Positions 48,593-56,786 of a stretch of 64,000 nt of DNA are shown in pieces; position 1 is the first letter of the stretch; each line of letters starts with the position of its first letter. The position numbers were made by a program, and so were the translations under genes. Source of the DNA: Shigella phage Ag3; the sequence record FJ373894; one strand, given 5' to 3'. Under the pieces are notes generated by a model. That model was not told where the DNA came from, did no database searches, and saw only the letters and a list, made by a program, of their open reading frames with translations.

Positions 48593-50794
48593 TTAAATTT
48601 TGATCTCTTTCTCTGCCAGTTCGGCAGTGACCTTGTACTTCACACCATCCACTTCAACTTCCATGGTGGACTCTTCCAGGTCGAGGTCGGTGAACCAGCC
48701 GTGGCCAGCAACGATACCATACACCACTTTAGACAGCGTCTTGTTCAGGGCGCGGACTTCGGTGATGGCCGCCTTGGCAGCAGCGTCGATCCAGTTTTCG
48801 ATCAGCTGTTTCTGTACGGCTTCAGGCACGGCAGTGATCGCAGGAGACTTCACGAATGCCTCGTACTCTTTCAGGGCATTGGCGATGAACAAGTCACCCG
48901 CATTGAGTTTCTTGTTCTCGGCAATCTTTTTCTGTACTGCCGCGATGCTAGGCAGAGAAGACGCCCCAGCGATCTTAACGTTCAGCTCACGGCTCATGTA
49001 GACATCCGTGGAGTCCTTCAGTTCGGTCTTCGGTGAGAAGCCGTAATCGCGGATGCCGTAGGAGGACAGGAACTCGGCCGCCTCAGCGCCGTACTGTACT
49101 GCCAGGCCTTTGGCGTTGCCTTTGCCAACCAGTTCATCACGGAAGAACTTCAGCACCTTCTGCTTGCCTTTCAGGGCTTCCAGACGGACGTTGTCAGCAA
49201 AGAACTGAGCAGCACTGATGTTCTTGACCATGGCGCGGTTGACCAGCGGTACGCTTTCCAGGTTCAGGACAAACACTTCCGGACCACCAAACACATGGAC
49301 GCCCATCTGACACAGATTGGTTACAACTTCAACATCAGCCCTGAACGGCAGAGTCTTCACGTTGATGATGCCGTCTTTGACGATGGTGTAGTTGCGCCAC
49401 TGGAAAGTATCCAGTTCTTCAGGCAGACCGAACTTCTTCTGCACGAACTCCGGAATCGCCACAGTGCCGTGTTGGACAGTGCGTACACTGATATTAGGGC
49501 GTTCGGAGTTATAGACCAAATCGCTGATTGGCACAACACCCAGATCGTTGGTAGGTTCGAACGTCGGGTTCCACTCTTCGTGCTCGGCCAGCTTGAGAGC
49601 CAGGGCTTTGCGCTCTTCTTTGGACTCGGCGTTCGCGATCTGTTCTGCCAGCTTGTCTTCGGTATCGTCCAGTTTCTGAGCCGTACCGCGACCGATGCTC
49701 TTGTAGGAGAACATAGGATGTTTGGTAGCAACACACACGCCAGCTTCAGCCAGATACGTCAGCACGTCAACGACGGTCGTCGCATCTTCAGCTGGAACCA
49801 GGTCATAGTCAATACCGTCAACGCCGCGCAGCTGGTCATCAACGATGGCCTGGGTCAGATCAACTTTGATGTTGGAGTAGTCCTGCTTGGTGAAGCAGTT
49901 GCTGTACTGTTTGATGAAGCGAACGTCACCAGTTTTCTTCAGTGCAGCCCACACCAGGTCTGCGTCCATGATGTGTACGCCGTAGAACGCCAGCACGTAT
50001 GCCGCCTGGATGTCCGCCAGTGCATCAAGCTGGTCGATCATGTTAGGATTGACGACCCACAGCTTCGTGACGCTCTCAGGGATGCTCACGTGGCCGATAG
50101 GATGGTCTTCATCCGGCTGTACCGCCAGCACAGTTGCTACGCCGTTTTCAACGTAGATGGCATGATCATACAGCAACGGAACATCAACAACCACTTTCGG
50201 CACCGAGGACTTCAGTACGTTTTCCAGCTCGGTCTGATATTCGGTCTGGCCTTCGGCGAACACGTGAGTCGCGCCGGAACGTTCAGACATCAGAGCCAGC
50301 AGTTCGCGGTTGCAGTACCAGCCGTATTCGATGAATGTGACGTTGTCGAAAGCGGAAGGAAGTTTTTCGGCGGTCTCCAGGATCTCATTGGAGCGCCAGC
50401 AGTTGTCATAACCATCGGTCATGAACGCCAGGTTGTTGACATAGCCAGGCTTCTTCAGACTACGAGCGGTGTCTACAGCCAGACCCAGAGGTTCCACGAA
50501 TCCAGTGCATCCGGACGGTTGTAGGAAGCGGTCGATCAGTTTGTTCAGCTCGCTCAGGTCAGATGCTGCACTAACCTGACGGCCAGCGAACACAGTACCA
50601 AAGTCGCCACGGGATGAGAAATACAGAACACTCACAGTGTCTTCCGGCTTCACCAGAGAAGGCAGGTTCTCCTTCAGATGCTTACGGACTTCAGGGAGCG
50701 CACGGTACATCGAATAAGAGATGTCCACAACGATTACATGGTTGGACGGGGCAGCAGTCGCAACCGCATTCTTAAATTCTAATGATTCAATCAT
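48593..50794 (-). CDS. von Willebrand factor A (MIDAS) domain protein
   Basis: ORF 48593..50878, probable start at internal Met (MIESLEF); N-terminal vWA with DxSxS (VVDISYSM) and TDG (FMTDGYDN) motifs; about 730 aa. Confidence 0.6.
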   Translation of the reverse strand: MIESLEFKNAVATAAPSNHVIVVDISYSMYRALPEVRKHLKENLPSLVKPEDTVSVLYFSSRGDFGTVFAGRQVSAASDLSELNKLIDRFLQPSGCTGFVEPLGLAVDTARSLKKPGYVNNLAFMTDGYDNCWRSNEILETAEKLPSAFDNVTFIEYGWYCNRELLALMSERSGATHVFAEGQTEYQTELENVLKSSVPKVVVDVPLLYDHAIYVENGVATVLAVQPDEDHPIGHVSIPESVTKLWVVNPNMIDQLDALADIQAAYVLAFYGVHIMDADLVWAALKKTGDVRFIKQYSNCFTKQDYSNIKVDLTQAIVDDQLRGVDGIDYDLVPAEDATTVVDVLTYLAEAGVCVATKHPMFSYKSIGRGTAQKLDDTEDKLAEQIANAESKEERKALALKLAEHEEWNPTFEPTNDLGVVPISDLVYNSERPNISVRTVQHGTVAIPEFVQKKFGLPEELDTFQWRNYTIVKDGIINVKTLPFRADVEVVTNLCQMGVHVFGGPEVFVLNLESVPLVNRAMVKNISAAQFFADNVRLEALKGKQKVLKFFRDELVGKGNAKGLAVQYGAEAAEFLSSYGIRDYGFSPKTELKDSTDVYMSRELNVKIAGASSLPSIAAVQKKIAENKKLNAGDLFIANALKEYEAFVKSPAITAVPEAVQKQLIENWIDAAAKAAITEVRALNKTLSKVVYGIVAGHGWFTDLDLEESTMEVEVDGVKYKVTAELAEKEIKI

Positions 50795-50957
50795 CGTTAT
50801 TGCCTTCTTCAGGGTTGTCTTCGGCCTCACCTTCCGGCTTGACCAGCATGTGTTCCAGGAAATCGCGATTGAGTTCAATCTGACTCATCAGCGTTTCCGA
50901 TGGGCTAAAGCGGCGGTCGAGGTTGTCGACGCCCGCACGTTCAAATGGTTTGGCCAT
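50787..50957 (-). CDS. small acidic protein
   Basis: ORF 50787..51014 with start at internal Met (MAKPFER). Confidence 0.35.
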   Translation of the reverse strand: MAKPFERAGVDNLDRRFSPSETLMSQIELNRDFLEHMLVKPEGEAEDNPEEGNNDD

Positions 50958-50958
50958 A

Positions 50959-51318
50959 TCAGCCGCCCTTGACTTCAGTAACGCCAGGGATCGACCGCAG
51001 GGCTTGGCGAACATCGGCGACCTTGTCCTTCTCCACAGTCACCACAATGAACGAGAAGTTCCTTTGTTTACGCCATTTCTTGAAGTGTGAGACAAGCTGT
51101 ACTTCGTTTTCTTCTGCGCCGCTTCCCCCTTCTACAGGGACGTAAACGACACCAGATTCAATAACTACATCGGCGTCATCGGGGATATCTGCGTCTACAT
51201 CTTCGCGATATTCACCATTGACTTTGATGCAATGATCGTCGTGCCAAGCGCCGTTCACCCAATATTCATCATCGTGGTAGTACGCATTGAATTCCGCGCC
51301 TTTCATCTTCACAGACAT
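50959..51318 (-). CDS. hypothetical acidic protein
   Basis: 119-aa ORF immediately downstream of Prs-NAMPT fusion gene. Confidence 0.45.
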   Translation of the reverse strand: MSVKMKGAEFNAYYHDDEYWVNGAWHDDHCIKVNGEYREDVDADIPDDADVVIESGVVYVPVEGGSGAEENEVQLVSHFKKWRKQRNFSFIVVTVEKDKVADVRQALRSIPGVTEVKGG

Positions 51319-51360
51319 CAGGTTTCCCTCAAAACAGGGGAGTTGCCTCCCCTTCGGTTA

Positions 51361-53004
51361 TCAGATTTGTGAGGCCAGTTCCGCCACCAGAGGAGCGGCG
51401 CGGACACGCGCATCTTCCAGAGTTTGAGTGTTGAAGAACTTGCCGTCACGATACACCAGCTGGTGCTGGTTGTCGGCGTCTTGTACCTGATCAAAGGTGA
51501 TACCGTCAACCAACACTAGTTTACCCTGAGAGTCTTTAATGACTTTAAGGAAACCACGCGCAGACTTTTTAGTCCCGCCTTTATCGGTCTTCGGCTCTTT
51601 GAAGATCTCACGGAATTCACCGTTCACCTTACCAGCCGTTGCTTTCACCGCCGTGCCAGTACTGTCACGGGTGTTCATCTGGTAGGTGTAGGAACCGATA
51701 CCGAACACCACGTTGATGGAAGCGAAGTTCCGGCCAGCCAGACGGCTAAAGATCTGGTCTTCACGCGCCAGGGTGATGGAGTCGCCGTAAATCAGACCGA
51801 TGTGTTCGTCCAACAGGAAGTGGCCAGTTTCGGTCTGGGTCCCGCCAAAGATCTCCCACAGGCGCTGGATAGAGCCGACTGCTTCAGAACGGCTGATGAT
51901 ATTACGGTCGTCTGCCATCAGAGAGTTGATCGTGCCTTCGCCTGTAATCAGGTGATAGGTGTTCGTCTCTTCGATGTGAATGACTTCGGTGCTGCTAGAC
52001 ACGCCGCTGATGTTCAGCGTGGCGCGGTCTTTGAACCCCTCAATTCGGTAGCCGCCGACGATATGAACTGGGTCGCCCGAGTCAGGGCGGATCACGACTT
52101 TACCGTTACGCGCCATGATAATATCTTTCAGGCGCGGCAGATAGTCGTCGATGACCTGCCAGTAATCCCACGCATCAGACACGATGCTGACGATGCCATC
52201 AGGATACACGTCCTGCACCAGGCGGCGGAAGGTTTCGAATTCGCCATCCTTCGTACCCATACACATCACGGCGTGTTCGGTAGCCGCAACAGAACCAGCA
52301 ACGACATAGTCTTCGTCGATGTCTGCGCCATAATACTCTTCAACGAACGTGCGCCCACCGTCGCAGATATCATCGACCACCACCAGATAACGGTCTTTGA
52401 TCAGTTCAGGGTTTGTAATGCTCACCCCAATGATCTCACCAGTCTTGGTGTCACGGTTCTTGTGTCCGTAGACAACAGGAACGCCATCCAATGACAGGCT
52501 GAGGGCTTCGGTCTTCTTCGCCGCGCCGCCGTCAGGAGCTACCAGCACAGCGTTGTTCCCACGGATGAACCAGCCCAGATACTGCCGCACGATGTAATCT
52601 TGCGGGACAACATGGACGTTGTTGATCAGAGAAGTCACAACATGGCTGTGAGGGTCTTTGATCGCCACACGGTCAAAGTTCATGCTATTGATGAACTCAG
52701 CCGCCCACTTCACGGACAGAGGCTCTCCGAAGTCGCAATGGCGGTCCTGGCGAGCATACGGGAAGTAAGGGATATACGCATGGAAGGTCGTCAGACGGTC
52801 CACGTTACCCAGGCCGCGCACGGCGTTAACCAGCAGTGCCAGCTCAACGAAGTCGGCTGATGATTTGATGTGGGCATCAATCACCACGTTCTGGACGTGG
52901 CCGACAGGGATACCAGCCTTTTGGATCTTGATATGTTCCTCACCACCTGGGAAGGTGAAGTGTTTGTAGAACACATCTTGGTCGTTCAATTTCAAACGAA
53001 ACAT
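51361..53004 (-). CDS. fusion protein: ribose-phosphate pyrophosphokinase-like N-terminus joined to nicotinamide phosphoribosyltransferase-like C-terminus
   Basis: 547 aa; residues ~1-225 carry Prs motifs (FPGGE, PYFPYARQDR, VLVAPDGGAAKK, VVVDDICDGGRT); residues ~226-547 match the NAMPT C-terminal half (YYG..VAATEHA, VSIVSDAWDYW, RPDSGDP). Confidence 0.75.
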   Translation of the reverse strand: MFRLKLNDQDVFYKHFTFPGGEEHIKIQKAGIPVGHVQNVVIDAHIKSSADFVELALLVNAVRGLGNVDRLTTFHAYIPYFPYARQDRHCDFGEPLSVKWAAEFINSMNFDRVAIKDPHSHVVTSLINNVHVVPQDYIVRQYLGWFIRGNNAVLVAPDGGAAKKTEALSLSLDGVPVVYGHKNRDTKTGEIIGVSITNPELIKDRYLVVVDDICDGGRTFVEEYYGADIDEDYVVAGSVAATEHAVMCMGTKDGEFETFRRLVQDVYPDGIVSIVSDAWDYWQVIDDYLPRLKDIIMARNGKVVIRPDSGDPVHIVGGYRIEGFKDRATLNISGVSSSTEVIHIEETNTYHLITGEGTINSLMADDRNIISRSEAVGSIQRLWEIFGGTQTETGHFLLDEHIGLIYGDSITLAREDQIFSRLAGRNFASINVVFGIGSYTYQMNTRDSTGTAVKATAGKVNGEFREIFKEPKTDKGGTKKSARGFLKVIKDSQGKLVLVDGITFDQVQDADNQHQLVYRDGKFFNTQTLEDARVRAAPLVAELASQI

Positions 53005-53114
53005 AATGTAGCCTCATGGTGTATTGTACAGCCGTATTATACTGTGATGCACAAATTGAAACACCCAGCAAATATACTGGGCGTCATTGATATTGAAGGA
53101 GTTTGATAATTCAG

Positions 53115-53909
53115 TTATTTGTAGGAATCGACGATGGCCTTGAACAGCGCGTCCTTCTGGTCGGTTGGGATATAATCCGCCGGAGCCAGCAAGAGCCGCC
53201 TGATGTCTTCACAGCAGCCTTTCTGTTCTTCGGCGCTCATCTTATCCCAAGTGGTGGCATTAAAGTAGATCCCACCCTTGTAAGCCGCCGTGCAAGTCTT
53301 GGCCAGGCGAACAACGAGTTCAGAATACAGTTCATCAGGCCGCATGTGTGAACGCAAATATGTTTCCACTCTGGCCTGGACTTTGCTGTTGTGTTGGTCA
53401 TTGTGAAGTTCGTTGTCGGTATGAATAAATTCAGCACCGAATCCGCGACTTGGGTCTCGTGGATGATGGAACACGAAAGACTGGCTATGACCTTTCAAGA
53501 ATTCCATCCCAGCCATATGATTTATCTTCCCCCTTTCGGAGATGTACTGCAAGATATCTATCTTCGCATCGGCGGTGGCCGCCTCCAACATCTGCTTCTC
53601 CACAACGGCGCGGTAGGCTTCCAGTTCCCACAACTGGGAGAAGGTCTTGTCATAGGCCAGCTTCTTACCCAACTCTTCATCAAAGTTGGCAGGGTCGATG
53701 GAAGTAGAGCTATTCTTGCCCCAGACGACGAAGCCGTTGTCCATCTTGAAGTGGCAGGTGATGACACGATGACCGCCGACTTCACGGTCTTCATAGATGA
53801 CTTCGGCAATGTGGGACTTCAGGAGGTCTGGAGACAGCTTCAGACCTTCGCGAACAGATTTACCCTTCAGCTCAACACCTTTGGGTTCATTACGATTGAT
53901 GGTTGCCAT
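53115..53909 (-). CDS. hypothetical protein
   Basis: ORF 53115..53942, start at internal Met (MATINRN). Confidence 0.45.
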   Translation of the reverse strand: MATINRNEPKGVELKGKSVREGLKLSPDLLKSHIAEVIYEDREVGGHRVITCHFKMDNGFVVWGKNSSTSIDPANFDEELGKKLAYDKTFSQLWELEAYRAVVEKQMLEAATADAKIDILQYISERGKINHMAGMEFLKGHSQSFVFHHPRDPSRGFGAEFIHTDNELHNDQHNSKVQARVETYLRSHMRPDELYSELVVRLAKTCTAAYKGGIYFNATTWDKMSAEEQKGCCEDIRRLLLAPADYIPTDQKDALFKAIVDSYK

Positions 53910-54291
53910 TCTGTGTTTCCCGTAATTGGTTGCATACAACAACTACTTTACGGCACATGTCGATATCGAACAAGCCAATATGACACTCACGCTTCTTTAT
54001 CCCCAGCTTATGCGCCAGCCAACTGTAAGCGTCGCTTCTGCTCCTCTCTCCGCTTTTCCACAATGGGTCAAACGATCTATGGGCTTTTCGCTTCTCGGCA
54101 CGGAGAGCGGCATTCGCCATCCTTCCCAGAGGTTGTCTGCCGTCTCCATGGGCATGGCAACCGACACGAGCGTCACATGGAGTGCATACCCAGAACTTCA
54201 GATTGCGGAGGTCAGGGCGATGAGGGTGGAGGACGTCACCACCGACGAATTCGGCTGGGAGGCCACAGTAATCACAGATGACAGGTTTCAT
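53890..54291 (-). CDS. zinc-finger protein
   Basis: ORF 53890..54318, start at MKPVICDYCG; CxxC and CTPCDARVGCHAHG motifs. Confidence 0.45.
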   Translation of the reverse strand: MKPVICDYCGLPAEFVGGDVLHPHRPDLRNLKFWVCTPCDARVGCHAHGDGRQPLGRMANAALRAEKRKAHRSFDPLWKSGERSRSDAYSWLAHKLGIKKRECHIGLFDIDMCRKVVVVCNQLRETQNGNHQS

Positions 54292-54767: not shown

Positions 54768-56786
54768 TTAGAACACAACTTTCACAGTGCGGTTGAACGA
54801 GCCGCTCACCTTCACGAACACGTGGTTGCGTTGGGTGGTAGAGAAGCCCAGACCGGACAGCTGCTCAGTGCTTGGCTGTACTTTAATCTTACCGCCTAAC
54901 ATTTCAAAAACCTTGCGGTGTTTATCAAGTTCCGGCTTCAGATATTCGTTGTAGAAGCCACGAGTGCCGACAGGGTTAGCACAACCTTCCAGGATGAAGA
55001 ACACGTGCTTGTTGCCCGTCTGCTCGCCGTCCCAATGGTTTGGTGAGTTCAGAACCAGCTGCACTTTCTGGAATACCGAGGTCTTGATGCCCCAGATTTC
55101 CTGCGAGCGTTCGTCGTCCTTCAGGGTAGAACGGATGTCTACCACTTGTCCAGCGCGGACATCAATCACAACAGCCAGAGTGCGATCTTTGTGCTTCAGG
55201 CCAGGATGCGAAAAACGCTTGGTCTGGCCTTTGTATTCAACTTCGATTTCGAAGCCCATATCACAGGTTTCACGCTGGCTGAAGTTAGTGACATAGAACT
55301 CGTACAGACCATCACGCAGCTTGCGTTCATCGCTGAAGAAGATGTTCTCCACCGGGCGGCGGTTGGGGTCAATACCGTCCATACCGTTCATGTCGATATC
55401 CAGGGTTGCGCCAGTTGCCGAGCGACGGTTGTGGTAATACACATGATTGTGTAAAGGATCGTTCAGGCTCAGATCCAGGTCATCGTTGTTATGCCACGCC
55501 AGGGACACACGGAGGAAACCGTCAACGTTGCCGCCTGCCGTCTTCACGCGCTCTTTGATGGAGTCGGCCACTTCACCGTTGTATGACCAGCTGAAGCCGT
55601 TGTTCCACTTGAACAGGTTAGGAGCGCCTGCGGTAGCCGGGGCGATCAGGGACATCAGGTTGCCAGTGTGAGAGTTTTCAACCAGCACTTCCAGGGAATG
55701 CGCCTTTGGCAACACGTTGGTCAGGAAGTCGTCGATGGTGATTTCTTCAACCTTGTCCAGGGACTTGGTCGGAGTCTTCACTTCAGACGCCAGCTGAGCA
55801 AACGGGTCCATCTTCTTCTGCGCTGCCAGGTCGGCAAACAAAACGTTGTTGATGGTCAGGTCGTCATATACAGCATAACGGCGGCCAAGGGATTCGGTCA
55901 GACCCAGCGCTTCGACTTCTTTCTGTGCGTTTTCAATCATGGACTTCGTGACCAGTGCAGTCGGGCGCTTATAGTTCTGAGGAGCGACTTTGGCTTCAAA
56001 GGACTTCACGGCGGTTTCCAGATCCCGACCTTCGTTGAGGTCTACCAACAGAGAGCCAATCACGGTATTACGGATGCCGTGAGGGGTGTGTCCGTTTGCA
56101 CGGTAGCCAGTACGCCAAGCCCACAGAGCGCGTTTCTCTTCTGCAGTTTGTTCGTACAGGGTCTTGCTCGTCACGAACGCCTGCACAGCAGCTTTGTGCT
56201 CTTCACCACGATACAGAGAATTCTGATCAATCAGTTCCAGAACGATTTCGGCCGATTCCAGAGACAGTTCACGCAGGCCGCGCTCAAACACTTCAATCGC
56301 CTGGCGGATTTCACCCTTCTTAGAAGCGATGACATCAGCCCGCAGAACATAGCTGGGCAGCAGGTCGGTGTGGAAGTGGTTGTAGGTGCGGACATTACCG
56401 TCTTTCATTTCGTGATTCGACTCAACACCGACTTTCTTGGTATCGTTGAAGTACACGTCGACGATTGCGTGTTGCTTGACATACGCAGACAGCGCCGCAG
56501 CGACAACGTCGTATTCGTTACCCAGCTGAATGTTATCCCAGATAGAGATCACGTTCAGGTCGGCGTCGATGGTCACCACACCGCCGATGTTACGGATGAA
56601 TTGTTTGCAGCAGGTGCAGTCGTGCTCGGTACGCTCACGGTAAAGCGGGTTGGTGCCAGCAGGGAAAGAAGACAGATACAGATCCCACAGAGCATCTTTA
56701 TCGATGTTGGTCATGAACAGACCAGTTGCTGACATGGCCAGCACGTTGTTATTAACAGCTACTGCGAAGGGCTTAAATTCTGACAT
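54768..56786 (-). CDS. large hypothetical protein
   Basis: 672 aa; no Walker or polymerase motifs recognised. Confidence 0.5.
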   Translation of the reverse strand: MSEFKPFAVAVNNNVLAMSATGLFMTNIDKDALWDLYLSSFPAGTNPLYRERTEHDCTCCKQFIRNIGGVVTIDADLNVISIWDNIQLGNEYDVVAAALSAYVKQHAIVDVYFNDTKKVGVESNHEMKDGNVRTYNHFHTDLLPSYVLRADVIASKKGEIRQAIEVFERGLRELSLESAEIVLELIDQNSLYRGEEHKAAVQAFVTSKTLYEQTAEEKRALWAWRTGYRANGHTPHGIRNTVIGSLLVDLNEGRDLETAVKSFEAKVAPQNYKRPTALVTKSMIENAQKEVEALGLTESLGRRYAVYDDLTINNVLFADLAAQKKMDPFAQLASEVKTPTKSLDKVEEITIDDFLTNVLPKAHSLEVLVENSHTGNLMSLIAPATAGAPNLFKWNNGFSWSYNGEVADSIKERVKTAGGNVDGFLRVSLAWHNNDDLDLSLNDPLHNHVYYHNRRSATGATLDIDMNGMDGIDPNRRPVENIFFSDERKLRDGLYEFYVTNFSQRETCDMGFEIEVEYKGQTKRFSHPGLKHKDRTLAVVIDVRAGQVVDIRSTLKDDERSQEIWGIKTSVFQKVQLVLNSPNHWDGEQTGNKHVFFILEGCANPVGTRGFYNEYLKPELDKHRKVFEMLGGKIKVQPSTEQLSGLGFSTTQRNHVFVKVSGSFNRTVKVVF

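Follow-up and report, generated by a model that had tools for sequence, protein, structure and literature searches.

A chimeric adps-namat reading frame in Shigella phage Ag3: a probable deletion remnant of the NARP1 operon

NARP1 (NAD+ reconstitution pathway 1) is a two-gene operon of phages that encodes Adps and Namat (Osterman et al., bioRxiv 10.1101/2024.02.11.579819; Namat structure, PMC12774641). The pathway produces NAD+ out of ADPR, ATP and nicotinamide and protects the phage against defences that deplete NAD+. In Shigella phage Ag3, a single open reading frame (ORF) joins parts of both enzyme families in one chain, which raises the question of whether this is a compact enzyme or what is left of two genes. 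An initial sequence-only reading of this DNA favoured a compact single-chain NAD+ reconstitution enzyme; its fallback was a chimera, possibly inactive, formed by deletion between neighbouring prs and nadV-type genes. The comparisons presented here, which cover a stretch of 64,000 nucleotides (the window) and the corresponding locus in related phages, point to the fallback: the Ag3 ORF is very probably the remnant of a recent microhomology-mediated deletion in a known NARP1 operon (adps + namat), and is predicted to be inactive.

The reading frame and its two parts

The 547-amino acid ORF lies at the coordinates given in the sequence-only reading, on the minus strand, which that reading had left unstated. 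It runs from an ATG at 53004-53002 to a stop codon at 51363-51361, and its product is the deposited protein ACO94364.1/YP_003358617.1. The features of the locus are as follows.

51361..53004, minus strand: chimeric ORF, 547 codons plus stop; Ag3 orf149, annotated 'putative nicotinamide phosphoribosyl transferase'; PHROG 12872 matches residues 1-547 of 547
53012..53015, minus strand: GAGG, Shine-Dalgarno-like, 7 nt 5' of the ATG, at the original adps translation start; read from the sequence
53115..53942, minus strand: upstream flanking gene, Phage_gp49_66 domain, PHROG 4435 (domain and profile matches)
50959..51318, minus strand: downstream flanking gene, PHROG 4254, function not assigned by the profile

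With the GAGG at the original adps start retained, translation of the chimera probably still begins there. A scan of positions 50900-53300 found no sigma-70-like promoter, and a terminator scan of the same region gave one terminator-like site, at chance level only. NAD-related neighbours (Macro, NUDIX, RyR and NMNAT) were sought in the genes around the ORF and none was found; within the 64-kb window there is neither an NMNAT partner nor a second copy of adps or namat. An exact-sequence contig lookup with the Ag3 protein returned no record.

All of the motifs quoted in the sequence-only reading (FPGGE, PYFPYARQDR, APDGGAAKK, VVVDDICDGGRT, VAATEHA, VSIVSDAWDYW and RPDSGDP) are found in the protein, and its outline of a Prs-like N-terminus joined to a NAMPT-like C-terminus is borne out by PHROG and Pfam mapping. 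Residues 1-222 are Prs/Adps-like, and residues ~220-547 are NAMPT/Namat-like. The ribose-phosphate pyrophosphokinase profile PHROG 619 matches residues 4-222 with its positions 6-220 of 282 (E = 3e-72), and the NAMPT profile PHROG 448 matches residues 220-537 with its positions 230-494 of 500 (E = 8e-102). Pfam returns Pribosyltran_N, Pribosyltran and NAPRTase (PF04095, 87.6 bits). It was also checked whether the N-terminal region might be an ordinary NAMPT N-domain; the region matches Prs, and NAMPT_N (PF18127) is absent from the protein in the Pfam search. At the level of sequence, the domain mapping confirms the chimeric nature of the ORF far above chance. The parts of the chimera are placed as follows.

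52348..53004, minus strand: adps-derived 5' part, codons 1-219; 99.5% identity between residues 1-222 and the same residues of the ChubbyThor Adps-like protein
52340..52347, minus strand: deletion junction, the single remaining repeat copy, encoding F-V-E; TTCGTTGA on the gene strand, TCAACGAA on the plus strand
51364..52339, minus strand: namat-derived 3' part, parent residues 230-554; retains ATEH (catalytic His), RPDSGD, GD(S) and the clamp-helix motif GSYTYQMNTRD
51877..52050, minus strand: insertion of ~58 residues, chimera residues 319-376; a gap between two HMMER stretches, with high pLDDT in the structure model

The insertion is typical of Ackermannviridae Namat and absent from SpbetaL1 Namat. 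The adps-derived part retains FPGGE, PYARQDR, DPHS, APDGGAAKK, HKNRD (the catalytic Lys loop) and DDICDGGRT (the PRPP loop).

Both halves resemble their wider families only in part. Like class I Prs (TIGR01251), residues 1-222 align with RQDR, DPHS, the flexible-loop Lys and the PRPP loop in place; unlike class I Prs, the protein scores below the family cutoff (87.7 bits against 113), and it has lost the helix, strands and HGIFS region of the C-terminus. Its last 325 residues show homology to the C-terminal three fifths of NAMPT/NadV (NF006629; as in KVP40 NARP2), including the phospho-His position, but NAMPT_N is lacking, and the match is confined to profile positions 210-461 with 267.8 bits against a cutoff of 405. 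The closer parents are the NARP1 enzymes. The Adps part of Ag3 falls in the phage Adps clade, whose substrate is ADPR and not ribose-5-phosphate (bioRxiv 10.1101/2024.02.11.579819), and the other parent is Namat, which prefers ADPR-PP, and not the PRPP-dependent NadV. The NARP1 tables list the MK-13, ChubbyThor and SKML-39 orthologues as Adps and 'Adps-associated' Namat, and the Ag3 protein itself is entered twice, as Adps and as Namat (bioRxiv 10.1101/2024.02.11.579819). Ag3 and its relatives are listed in SupTable_Prs with 'Namat within 10 genes: Yes', and the identification of an Adps/Namat pair as the parents is backed by these tables.

Two-gene relatives and the 872-bp deletion

More than 60 close relatives (MK-13, ChubbyThor, SKML-39 and others) have two intact overlapping genes at this locus, adps-like (284 aa) and namat-like (554 aa). 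The locus measures 1,644 bp in Ag3 versus 2,516 bp in the closest relatives. In each of the 61 phage records with at least 80% coverage of the ORF, the match is broken into two or three pieces over ~2.5 kb and two genes are annotated; the Ag3 junction is in none of them. The BLAST breakpoints leave an 872-bp gap with an 8-nt overlap, and the deletion is bounded by two copies of an 8-bp direct repeat (Phe-Val-Glu). In MK-13, the repeat is perfect in both copies, one in adps and one in namat, 872 bp apart. A comparison of the orthologous locus, which had been suggested as a check, therefore gives two intact genes in every close relative, and a single 872-bp deletion between 8-bp repeats turns that arrangement into the chimera.

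The losses at the junction can be stated exactly. Ag3 lacks 288 parental residues in total, the last 62 of Adps and the first 226 of Namat, and so is not simply two adjacent intact genes, as had been noted. The sequence-only reading was right that both parts are truncated; its sizes need correction, from ~85 to 62 residues for the Prs part (222 of 284 are kept) and from ~230 to 226 (of 554) for the NAMPT part. It placed the switch at YYGA, whereas the exact junction is the F-V-E common to both genes, at residues 220-222, directly before EYYGA.

The ancestor would have had two overlapping genes as in MK-13 and ChubbyThor, each with one copy of the repeat, at a distance of 872 bp. One copy and the whole intervening stretch would then have been lost by replication slippage or by illegitimate recombination between the repeats. 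With a 4-bp overlap between the genes, adps and namat are read in different frames; since 872 = 2 mod 3, such a loss would have joined these frames, with Adps 1-222 joined to Namat 230-554 in a product of 547 aa. Ag3 would thus illustrate how an anti-defence cassette can decay via microhomology-mediated deletion.

Within the NARP1 locus, Ag3 is ~97% identical to MK-13 and ChubbyThor, and all three infect Shigella boydii. Seven substitutions in the ORF are private to Ag3, all of them synonymous, and there has been no further decay after the deletion. This absence of decay agrees with a very recent deletion, but a chimera under purifying selection would look the same.

The operon is accessory and dispensable in the family. 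It is present in eight of 14 Agtrevirus genomes (PMC10791037), and many Ackermannviridae cleanly lack it, with the upstream (PHROG 4435) and downstream flanking genes directly adjoining. To this presence/absence polymorphism, already noted in Ackermannviridae, Ag3 adds a partly deleted state. A selective reason for NARP1 loss via aRES was also considered; aRES leaves NARP1 useless but not harmful (aRES paper), and adaptive loss is thus not supported.

An absence of post-deletion decay would equally be seen if the gap were an artefact. In that case, the real Ag3 would have an intact operon, and the 872-bp gap would come from the 454 assembly or from a minority deletion variant in the stock. In favour of this are the data behind the genome, 454 pyrosequencing assembled around 2009 with a coverage of only 19x, and the restriction of the deletion to one record. 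However, reads of several hundred bases would not be collapsed by a repeat as short as 8 bp, the junction is in frame and clean, and the locus is dispensable and variable in the family. Similar chimeras have also turned up in independently assembled metagenomes, in one case in two samples, and deletions flanked by repeats are well known as a biological process, which counts against an artefact. An error of assembly or sampling is considered unlikely, and the deletion is probably real.

Lost residues and predicted activity

If the chimera were a functional compact form of NARP1, its Adps fragment would make ADPR-PP and its Namat fragment would couple nicotinamide to it, within one 61-kDa chain. 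Several features would agree with this: the ORF is in frame with its start and ribosome-binding site intact, the private substitutions are all synonymous, and the Adps catalytic motifs, the Namat catalytic His, the R306/D308 equivalents and the clamp-helix motif are kept. Indeed, every sequence motif known as catalytic in Prs/Adps is present. This includes the catalytic flexible-loop lysine, where GHKNRD aligns with HKTRD of Mycobacterium tuberculosis Prs; the residue (SpbetaL1 K162, Bacillus subtilis Prs K197) is important for Adps. Both halves also come from exactly the gene pair of NARP1. Unlike NARP1, however, Ag3 has one ORF and not two, and missing from it are the nicotinamide pocket, the loop of the selectivity clamp and the region of the dimer interface.

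Mapping onto the crystal structure of SpbetaL1 Namat (PDB 9w5x, PMC12774641) places seven of the 20 ligand contacts in the deleted part. These are D13, Y15, R40, F189, S190, R192 and D215 in SpbetaL1 numbering, corresponding to the D13, Y15, K40, F194, S195, R197 and D220 equivalents of the parent Namat, and they include both nicotinamide-stacking residues and the Asp that hydrogen-bonds nicotinamide; the whole nicotinamide pocket is among the losses. Within the conserved catalytic core (SpbetaL1 Y15', F189, R192, D215, R306 and D308), only the R313/D315 equivalents remain. [quoted passage not shown] Single mutations in Namat lower NAD+ synthesis by ~1.5-fold (F189A) and ~8-fold (D215A), and R40A/F392G abolishes anti-defence activity in vivo (PMC12774641).

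The losses extend to the folds themselves. Much of domain A in Namat, and of the interface through which it dimerises head to tail, comes from the N-terminal region (PMC12774641); the deleted part spans the N-terminal domain A elements beta1-beta5 and alpha1-alpha4, and the native interface is therefore not expected to form as described. On the Adps side, the two-domain Prs fold (~280 aa) is incomplete after the PRPP loop, where the helix, strand, HGIFS and C-terminal segment have been lost. An AlphaFold2 model of the monomeric chimera has a mean pLDDT of 81 and a pTM of 0.55, values that are weakly informative, since AlphaFold renders fragments like their parents; it is least confident at the junction, the PRPP-loop residues 215-218, the catalytic-His region and the clamp helix (residues 437-451 below 50). 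The input for structure prediction was an alignment with concatenated fragment rows (A4), while two MAFFT alignments (A2 and A3) were discarded, as they misaligned the Prs part onto NAMPT.

Both folds have lost structural elements, and one third of the Namat ligand contacts are gone; the chimera is therefore expected to be without ADPR pyrophosphokinase and without nicotinamide ADPR-transferase activity, and it is probably inactive. Some residual binding activity may persist, because the Prs/Adps catalytic motifs and a good ribosome-binding site are retained. Since both activities are expected to be lost, Ag3 is predicted to be functionally NARP1-negative. The idea of a compact single-chain enzyme, the headline of the sequence-only reading, is not supported: the relatives have two genes, a single recent event separates Ag3 from them, needed parts are lost, there is no conserved family of such architecture, and the real single-chain versions retain both full-length halves (785 aa). 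It is regarded as extremely improbable.

The underlying NARP1 system is already known, and the main value of this analysis is the correction of a record. In the exemplar phage of the genus Agtrevirus, a gene annotated simply as NAMPT is a predicted broken adps-namat chimera. The NARP1 survey scores Ag3 as a carrier and lists its one protein under Adps as well as under Namat; thus, automated counts of anti-defence genes can overcall function. Ag3 and MK-13/ChubbyThor also form a natural experiment, with a near-identical locus and differing NARP1 integrity, that bears on the contribution of NARP1 in Ackermannviridae.

Other chimeras and complete fusions

Among ~15 billion proteins, the Ag3 protein forms a one-member cluster on one contig, and no diverged protein sharing its junction emerged from an exhaustive HMMER search of 1.84 billion representatives. 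Other truncated chimeras were found in metagenomes (P0012, P0020, P0032, P0121 and P0140), all of them singletons with breakpoints unlike that of Ag3. In Ag3, P0012 and P0020, the Adps breaks lie within ~5 residues of each other, just past the PRPP loop; in other chimeras the breakpoints differ (Adps 124 or 165; Namat 147-377).

This recurrence raises another possibility, namely that the Ag3 chimera has been kept for a new or partial function, as a sponge for ATP, ADPR or signalling nucleotides, or by interfering with host Prs or NAMPT-family oligomers. More broadly, Adps(~1-225)-Namat chimeras (Ag3, P0012 and P0020) would represent a minimal protein maintained by selection for a new role in the NAD+/ADPR arms race, either as a sponge for nucleotides or ADPR derivatives or as a dominant-negative partner of host PRPP- and NAD-salvage enzymes. 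In-frame Adps(N)-Namat(C) chimeras do recur in three unrelated lineages, P0012 occurs in two samples, and Ag3 has no nonsynonymous private changes. Nevertheless, every chimera is a singleton, the breakpoints of the other chimeras differ, and in-frame products are all that a protein search of this kind can detect. The two contigs that carry P0012 show 100% DNA identity and thus represent the same strain, and a direct search found no diverged relative that shares the P0012 junction, so a conserved family around these similar Adps breakpoints was rejected as the main explanation. For P0020, P0032, P0121 and P0140, no same-junction partner was present among 384 fetched proteins. At least three of the chimera junctions fall at short peptide or nucleotide matches common to both genes (FVE, KEL and AA), and breakpoint placement is therefore explained without selection. 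Both the retention of the Ag3 protein for such a function and the broader role for the three chimeras appear highly improbable, and a deletion remnant is the preferred reading of the Ag3 ORF.

The remark that a single chain would be unusual has to be qualified, since complete single-chain Adps-Namat fusions do exist; Ag3 is not among them. P0010 and P0014, from metagenomic phage contigs, are 785 aa long and 87% identical without gaps, and P0283 (757 aa) has the reverse order. Ag3 has the same two enzyme families in one chain and in the same N-to-C order as P0010 and P0014. In contrast to Ag3, a singleton with 62 + 226 residues missing and no conserved relatives, the complete fusions have each half at full length and every motif (HGIFS, DFYK, HDFSFRG, GTDT and others). 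Long NAMPT-containing representatives (720-899 aa) were considered as further Prs fusions, but Pfam identifies them as NAMPTs with large internal insertions. The complete, conserved 785-aa fusions in uncultured phages are the real candidates for a single-chain enzyme.

A chimeric gene derived from a NAD+ reconstitution operon

The gene of interest is a single reading frame:

51361-53004, minus strand, chimeric ORF of 547 codons

Profile searches divide its product between two enzyme families. Residues 4-222 match positions 6-220 of 282 in PHROG 619 (ribose-phosphate pyrophosphokinase), while residues 220-537 match positions 230-494 of 500 in PHROG 448 (nicotinamide phosphoribosyltransferase). 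The Pfam domains present are Pribosyltran_N, Pribosyltran and NAPRTase; NAMPT_N was not found in the Pfam profile search. Scores against full-length NCBIfam models fall far short of the cutoffs (268 bits against 405 for NAMPT, and 88 against 113 for Prs). These profiles confirm the two-part composition claimed in the sequence-only reading: the product combines the greater part of a Prs-like enzyme with three fifths, the C-terminal portion, of a NAMPT-like enzyme.

PHROG 12872 covers the chimera end to end, so its sequence is already in public phage data. An exact-sequence look-up identifies it as ACO94364.1/YP_003358617.1, a 'putative nicotinamide phosphoribosyl transferase' of Shigella phage Ag3 (PhiSboM-AG3; Ackermannviridae, Agtrevirus). 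In the Ag3 genome paper it appears as orf149, described as a NAMPT with no further comment. Among approximately 15 billion proteins, it is the sole member of its 90% cluster, on one contig of 158,006 bp.

The parents of the chimera are indicated by the tables of the study describing NARP1 (NAD+ reconstitution pathway 1), a two-gene adps and namat operon (bioRxiv 10.1101/2024.02.11.579819). There, proteins of the relatives ChubbyThor, SKML-39 and MK-13 are listed as Prs/Adps homologues with Namat nearby and also as 'Adps-associated' Namat homologues. The C-terminal part of the chimera carries the Namat-specific clamp-helix motif, GSYTYQMNTRD. This identifies the parent locus as a NARP1 operon, which had been suspected from the sequence. 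The chimera itself is entry FJ373894_00125 in both Supplementary Tables 1 and 2, once among the Prs/Adps homologues, marked 'Namat within 10 genes: Yes', and once as an 'Adps-associated' Namat (bioRxiv 10.1101/2024.02.11.579819); thus, Ag3 was counted as NARP1-positive despite its broken operon. The NARP1 system is already known, and the Ag3 protein has been deposited and tabulated. The terms 'fused', 'fusion' and 'truncat' are absent from the main text of both NARP1 papers, and the chimeric, probably non-functional nature of the protein appears to be unreported so far.

Origin and timing of the deletion

Searches of 50,697 phage records with tblastn and megablast showed that the close relatives, including MK-13, ChubbyThor, SKML-39, SW16-7, P46FS4, Gloob, AV101 and EspM4VN, all match 100% of the chimeric ORF at 91-98% DNA identity. 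In each, the match is split into two pieces over 2,516 bp, compared with 1,644 bp in Ag3, and the record annotates two genes, a ribose-phosphate pyrophosphokinase and a nicotinamide phosphoribosyltransferase. ChubbyThor encodes gp162 (284 aa) and gp161 (554 aa) with a 4-bp overlap, a layout also found in MK-13, SKML-39, SW16-7 and AV101. The Ag3 junction is absent from every other record searched.

When the window is compared with ChubbyThor by pairwise BLAST, two collinear blocks result; ChubbyThor has 872 bp between them, and in the window they share 8 nt (52340-52347). Read on the gene strand, this overlap is TTCGTTGA and codes for Phe-Val-Glu; it closes '...DDICDGGRT-FVE' in Adps and opens 'FVE-EYYGAD...' in Namat. 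The adps and namat copies of this 8-mer are identical in MK-13, the closest relative, and the namat copy has one mismatch in the other four relatives. Loss of one repeat copy together with the intervening sequence is a classic signature of slipped-strand or illegitimate recombination, and such an event between the 8-bp copies would have removed one copy and the stretch between the two, 872 bp in all. Because the two genes lie in different frames and 872 is 2 mod 3, the deletion by chance brings the frames into register, giving a product of Adps 1-222 and Namat 230-554 in which FVE is common to both.

The chimera is very probably a real, recent remnant of a microhomology-mediated deletion, and catalytically dead. 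A deletion-derived chimera of adjacent genes had been the fallback of the sequence-only reading, and the two-gene relatives and the repeat-bounded gap bear it out. The deletion is unlikely to be an assembly artefact: although the genome paper reports 454 data at only 19x coverage, an 8-bp repeat is too short to collapse an assembly, and comparable chimeras are found in assemblies made independently.

Comparative genomics found adps and namat in only 8 of 14 Agtrevirus genomes (PMC10791037). A query with the flanks only (window 50661-51360 and 53005-53704) gave matches H121-H155. In many Ackermannviridae (PhiSH19, ST-W77, FEC14, pSal-SNUABM-02, Yersinia phage CAU_YEP3 and others) these flanks directly abut one another. 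The NARP1 operon is an accessory cassette that is either present or absent at one fixed position, bordered by conserved genes, and Ag3 has a partly deleted state.

Neutral decay yields mostly nonsynonymous changes. Compared with five relatives, Ag3 has 7 private substitutions in the chimera, every one of them synonymous, so most of the Ag3 branch predates the deletion. The deletion thus appears to be very recent, perhaps dating from around the time of isolation or passage. Selection on the chimera is a less likely account of the same substitutions; they are the main item in its favour and count against a deletion remnant, yet a new function, such as a sponge or a dominant-negative protein, seems highly improbable.

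Elsewhere on the minus strand (54768-56786) is encoded a 672-aa protein whose ChubbyThor orthologue, gp166, is annotated 'putative DNA-directed RNA polymerase'. The Ag3 protein has no Pfam match at E <= 0.01; it seems that the annotation lacks support or that the protein has diverged strongly.

Predicted loss of activity in the chimera

Ligand contacts from the crystal structure of SpbetaL1 Namat were transferred to the chimera through a HMMER alignment. Seven of the 20 contact residues fall within the deleted 226 residues (D13', Y15', R40', F189, S190, R192 and D215 in SpbetaL1 numbering). They comprise the whole nicotinamide pocket, with two stacking aromatic residues and a hydrogen-bonding Asp, along with a phosphate-binding Arg and the loop that makes up half of the ADPR-PP selectivity clamp. 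Single mutations lower NAD+ synthesis about 1.5-fold (F189A) and about 8-fold (D215A), and R40A/F392G abolishes anti-defence activity in vivo; the deleted segment contributes a large share both of domain A and of the head-to-tail dimer interface, which houses the active site (PMC12774641).

The Adps part keeps its catalytic motifs (RQDR, DPHS, the HKNRD loop lysine and the PRPP loop) and lacks the 62 residues after the PRPP loop, a region present in every Prs that includes the conserved THGIFS segment. In an AlphaFold2 model (mean pLDDT 81, pTM 0.55), each fragment is folded like its parent. Confidence is lowest at the junction (residues 211-250), four PRPP-loop residues (215-218) and the surroundings of the catalytic His, and pLDDT is below 50 in the clamp helix (437-451). 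The model shows weak but consistent agreement with a presumably impaired protein. No second copy of adps or namat was found within the 64-kb window.

Ackermannviridae Namat also has an insertion of about 58 residues relative to SpbetaL1 Namat. It occupies chimera residues 319-376 (window 51877-52050), is flanked by RPDSGDP...GG and the LWEIFGG helix, and is confidently predicted by AlphaFold to be a small strand/helix module.

As ordinary gene decay, the finding is of modest value. It corrects an annotation, flags an overcall in the published NARP1 census, and offers a predicted natural NARP1-defective comparator to MK-13 and ChubbyThor.

Other Adps-Namat fusions

No diverged homologue sharing the Ag3 junction turned up when 5.8 billion clusters were searched by index and 1.84 billion representatives exhaustively by HMMER. 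A local re-scan sorted the retrieved proteins into complete fusions, truncated chimeras with other junctions, and the Ag3 protein.

Fused Adps and Namat proteins on metagenomic contigs
P0014, L005:6001-8358, complete fusion (JGI 3300049830, 134.6-kb contig; also on a second contig)
P0010, L006:6001-8358, complete fusion (Logan SRR35533450)
P0283, L011:4728-7001, reverse-order fusion of 757 aa (JGI 3300072492, 15.7-kb contig)
P0012, L003:732-2411 and L004:711-2390, truncated chimera, Adps to ~226, Namat from ~147
P0020, L002:1586-3127, truncated chimera, Adps to ~227, Namat from ~242
P0032, truncated chimera, Adps to ~165, Namat from ~244
P0121, truncated chimera, Adps to ~124, Namat from ~204
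P0140, truncated chimera, reverse order
P0202, further in-frame truncated chimera, phage-like contig

P0010 and P0014 (785 aa each) contain a full-length Adps followed by a linker of about 45 residues and then a complete Namat in which every catalytic and clamp motif is present. They are 87% identical without gaps, so the complete fusion is conserved across diverged phages. P0283 runs from a complete Namat directly into a complete Adps-like protein (start 'MILFNEQ'); because it is a singleton on a single contig, it could be a true fusion or reflect a lost stop codon or sequencing error.

The truncated chimeras are in frame, on phage-like contigs, each with its own breakpoints. P0012 occurs on two contigs with 100% identical DNA and has no diverged relative with the same junction. 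At least three junctions lie at short matches common to both genes (FVE in Ag3, KEL in P0020 and Ala-Ala, 'PDAG-VAATEH', in P0032), and the Adps breakpoints of Ag3, P0012 and P0020 all fall within about 5 residues after the PRPP loop. Truncated chimeras are thus sporadic, microhomology-driven accidents, whereas complete fusions are conserved. This contrast disfavours the compact single-chain enzyme first proposed for Ag3, which also fails on the lost Namat pocket, the missing Adps C-terminal end and the want of a junction-sharing family; a functional enzyme is extremely unlikely. The conserved 785-aa fusions are better candidates for a true single-chain NAD+ reconstitution enzyme.

Other NAMPT/Namat homologues (P0156, P0170, P0176, P0181, P0192, P0221, P0234 and P0246, of 821-899 aa, and P0253, of 778 aa) carry internal insertions, 300-400 residues long, that separate NAMPT_N from the NAPRTase core. 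In P0253, an intein-like insert (CVSRGTPILCTDL...SHN) lies within the GSYxxQ clamp-helix motif.
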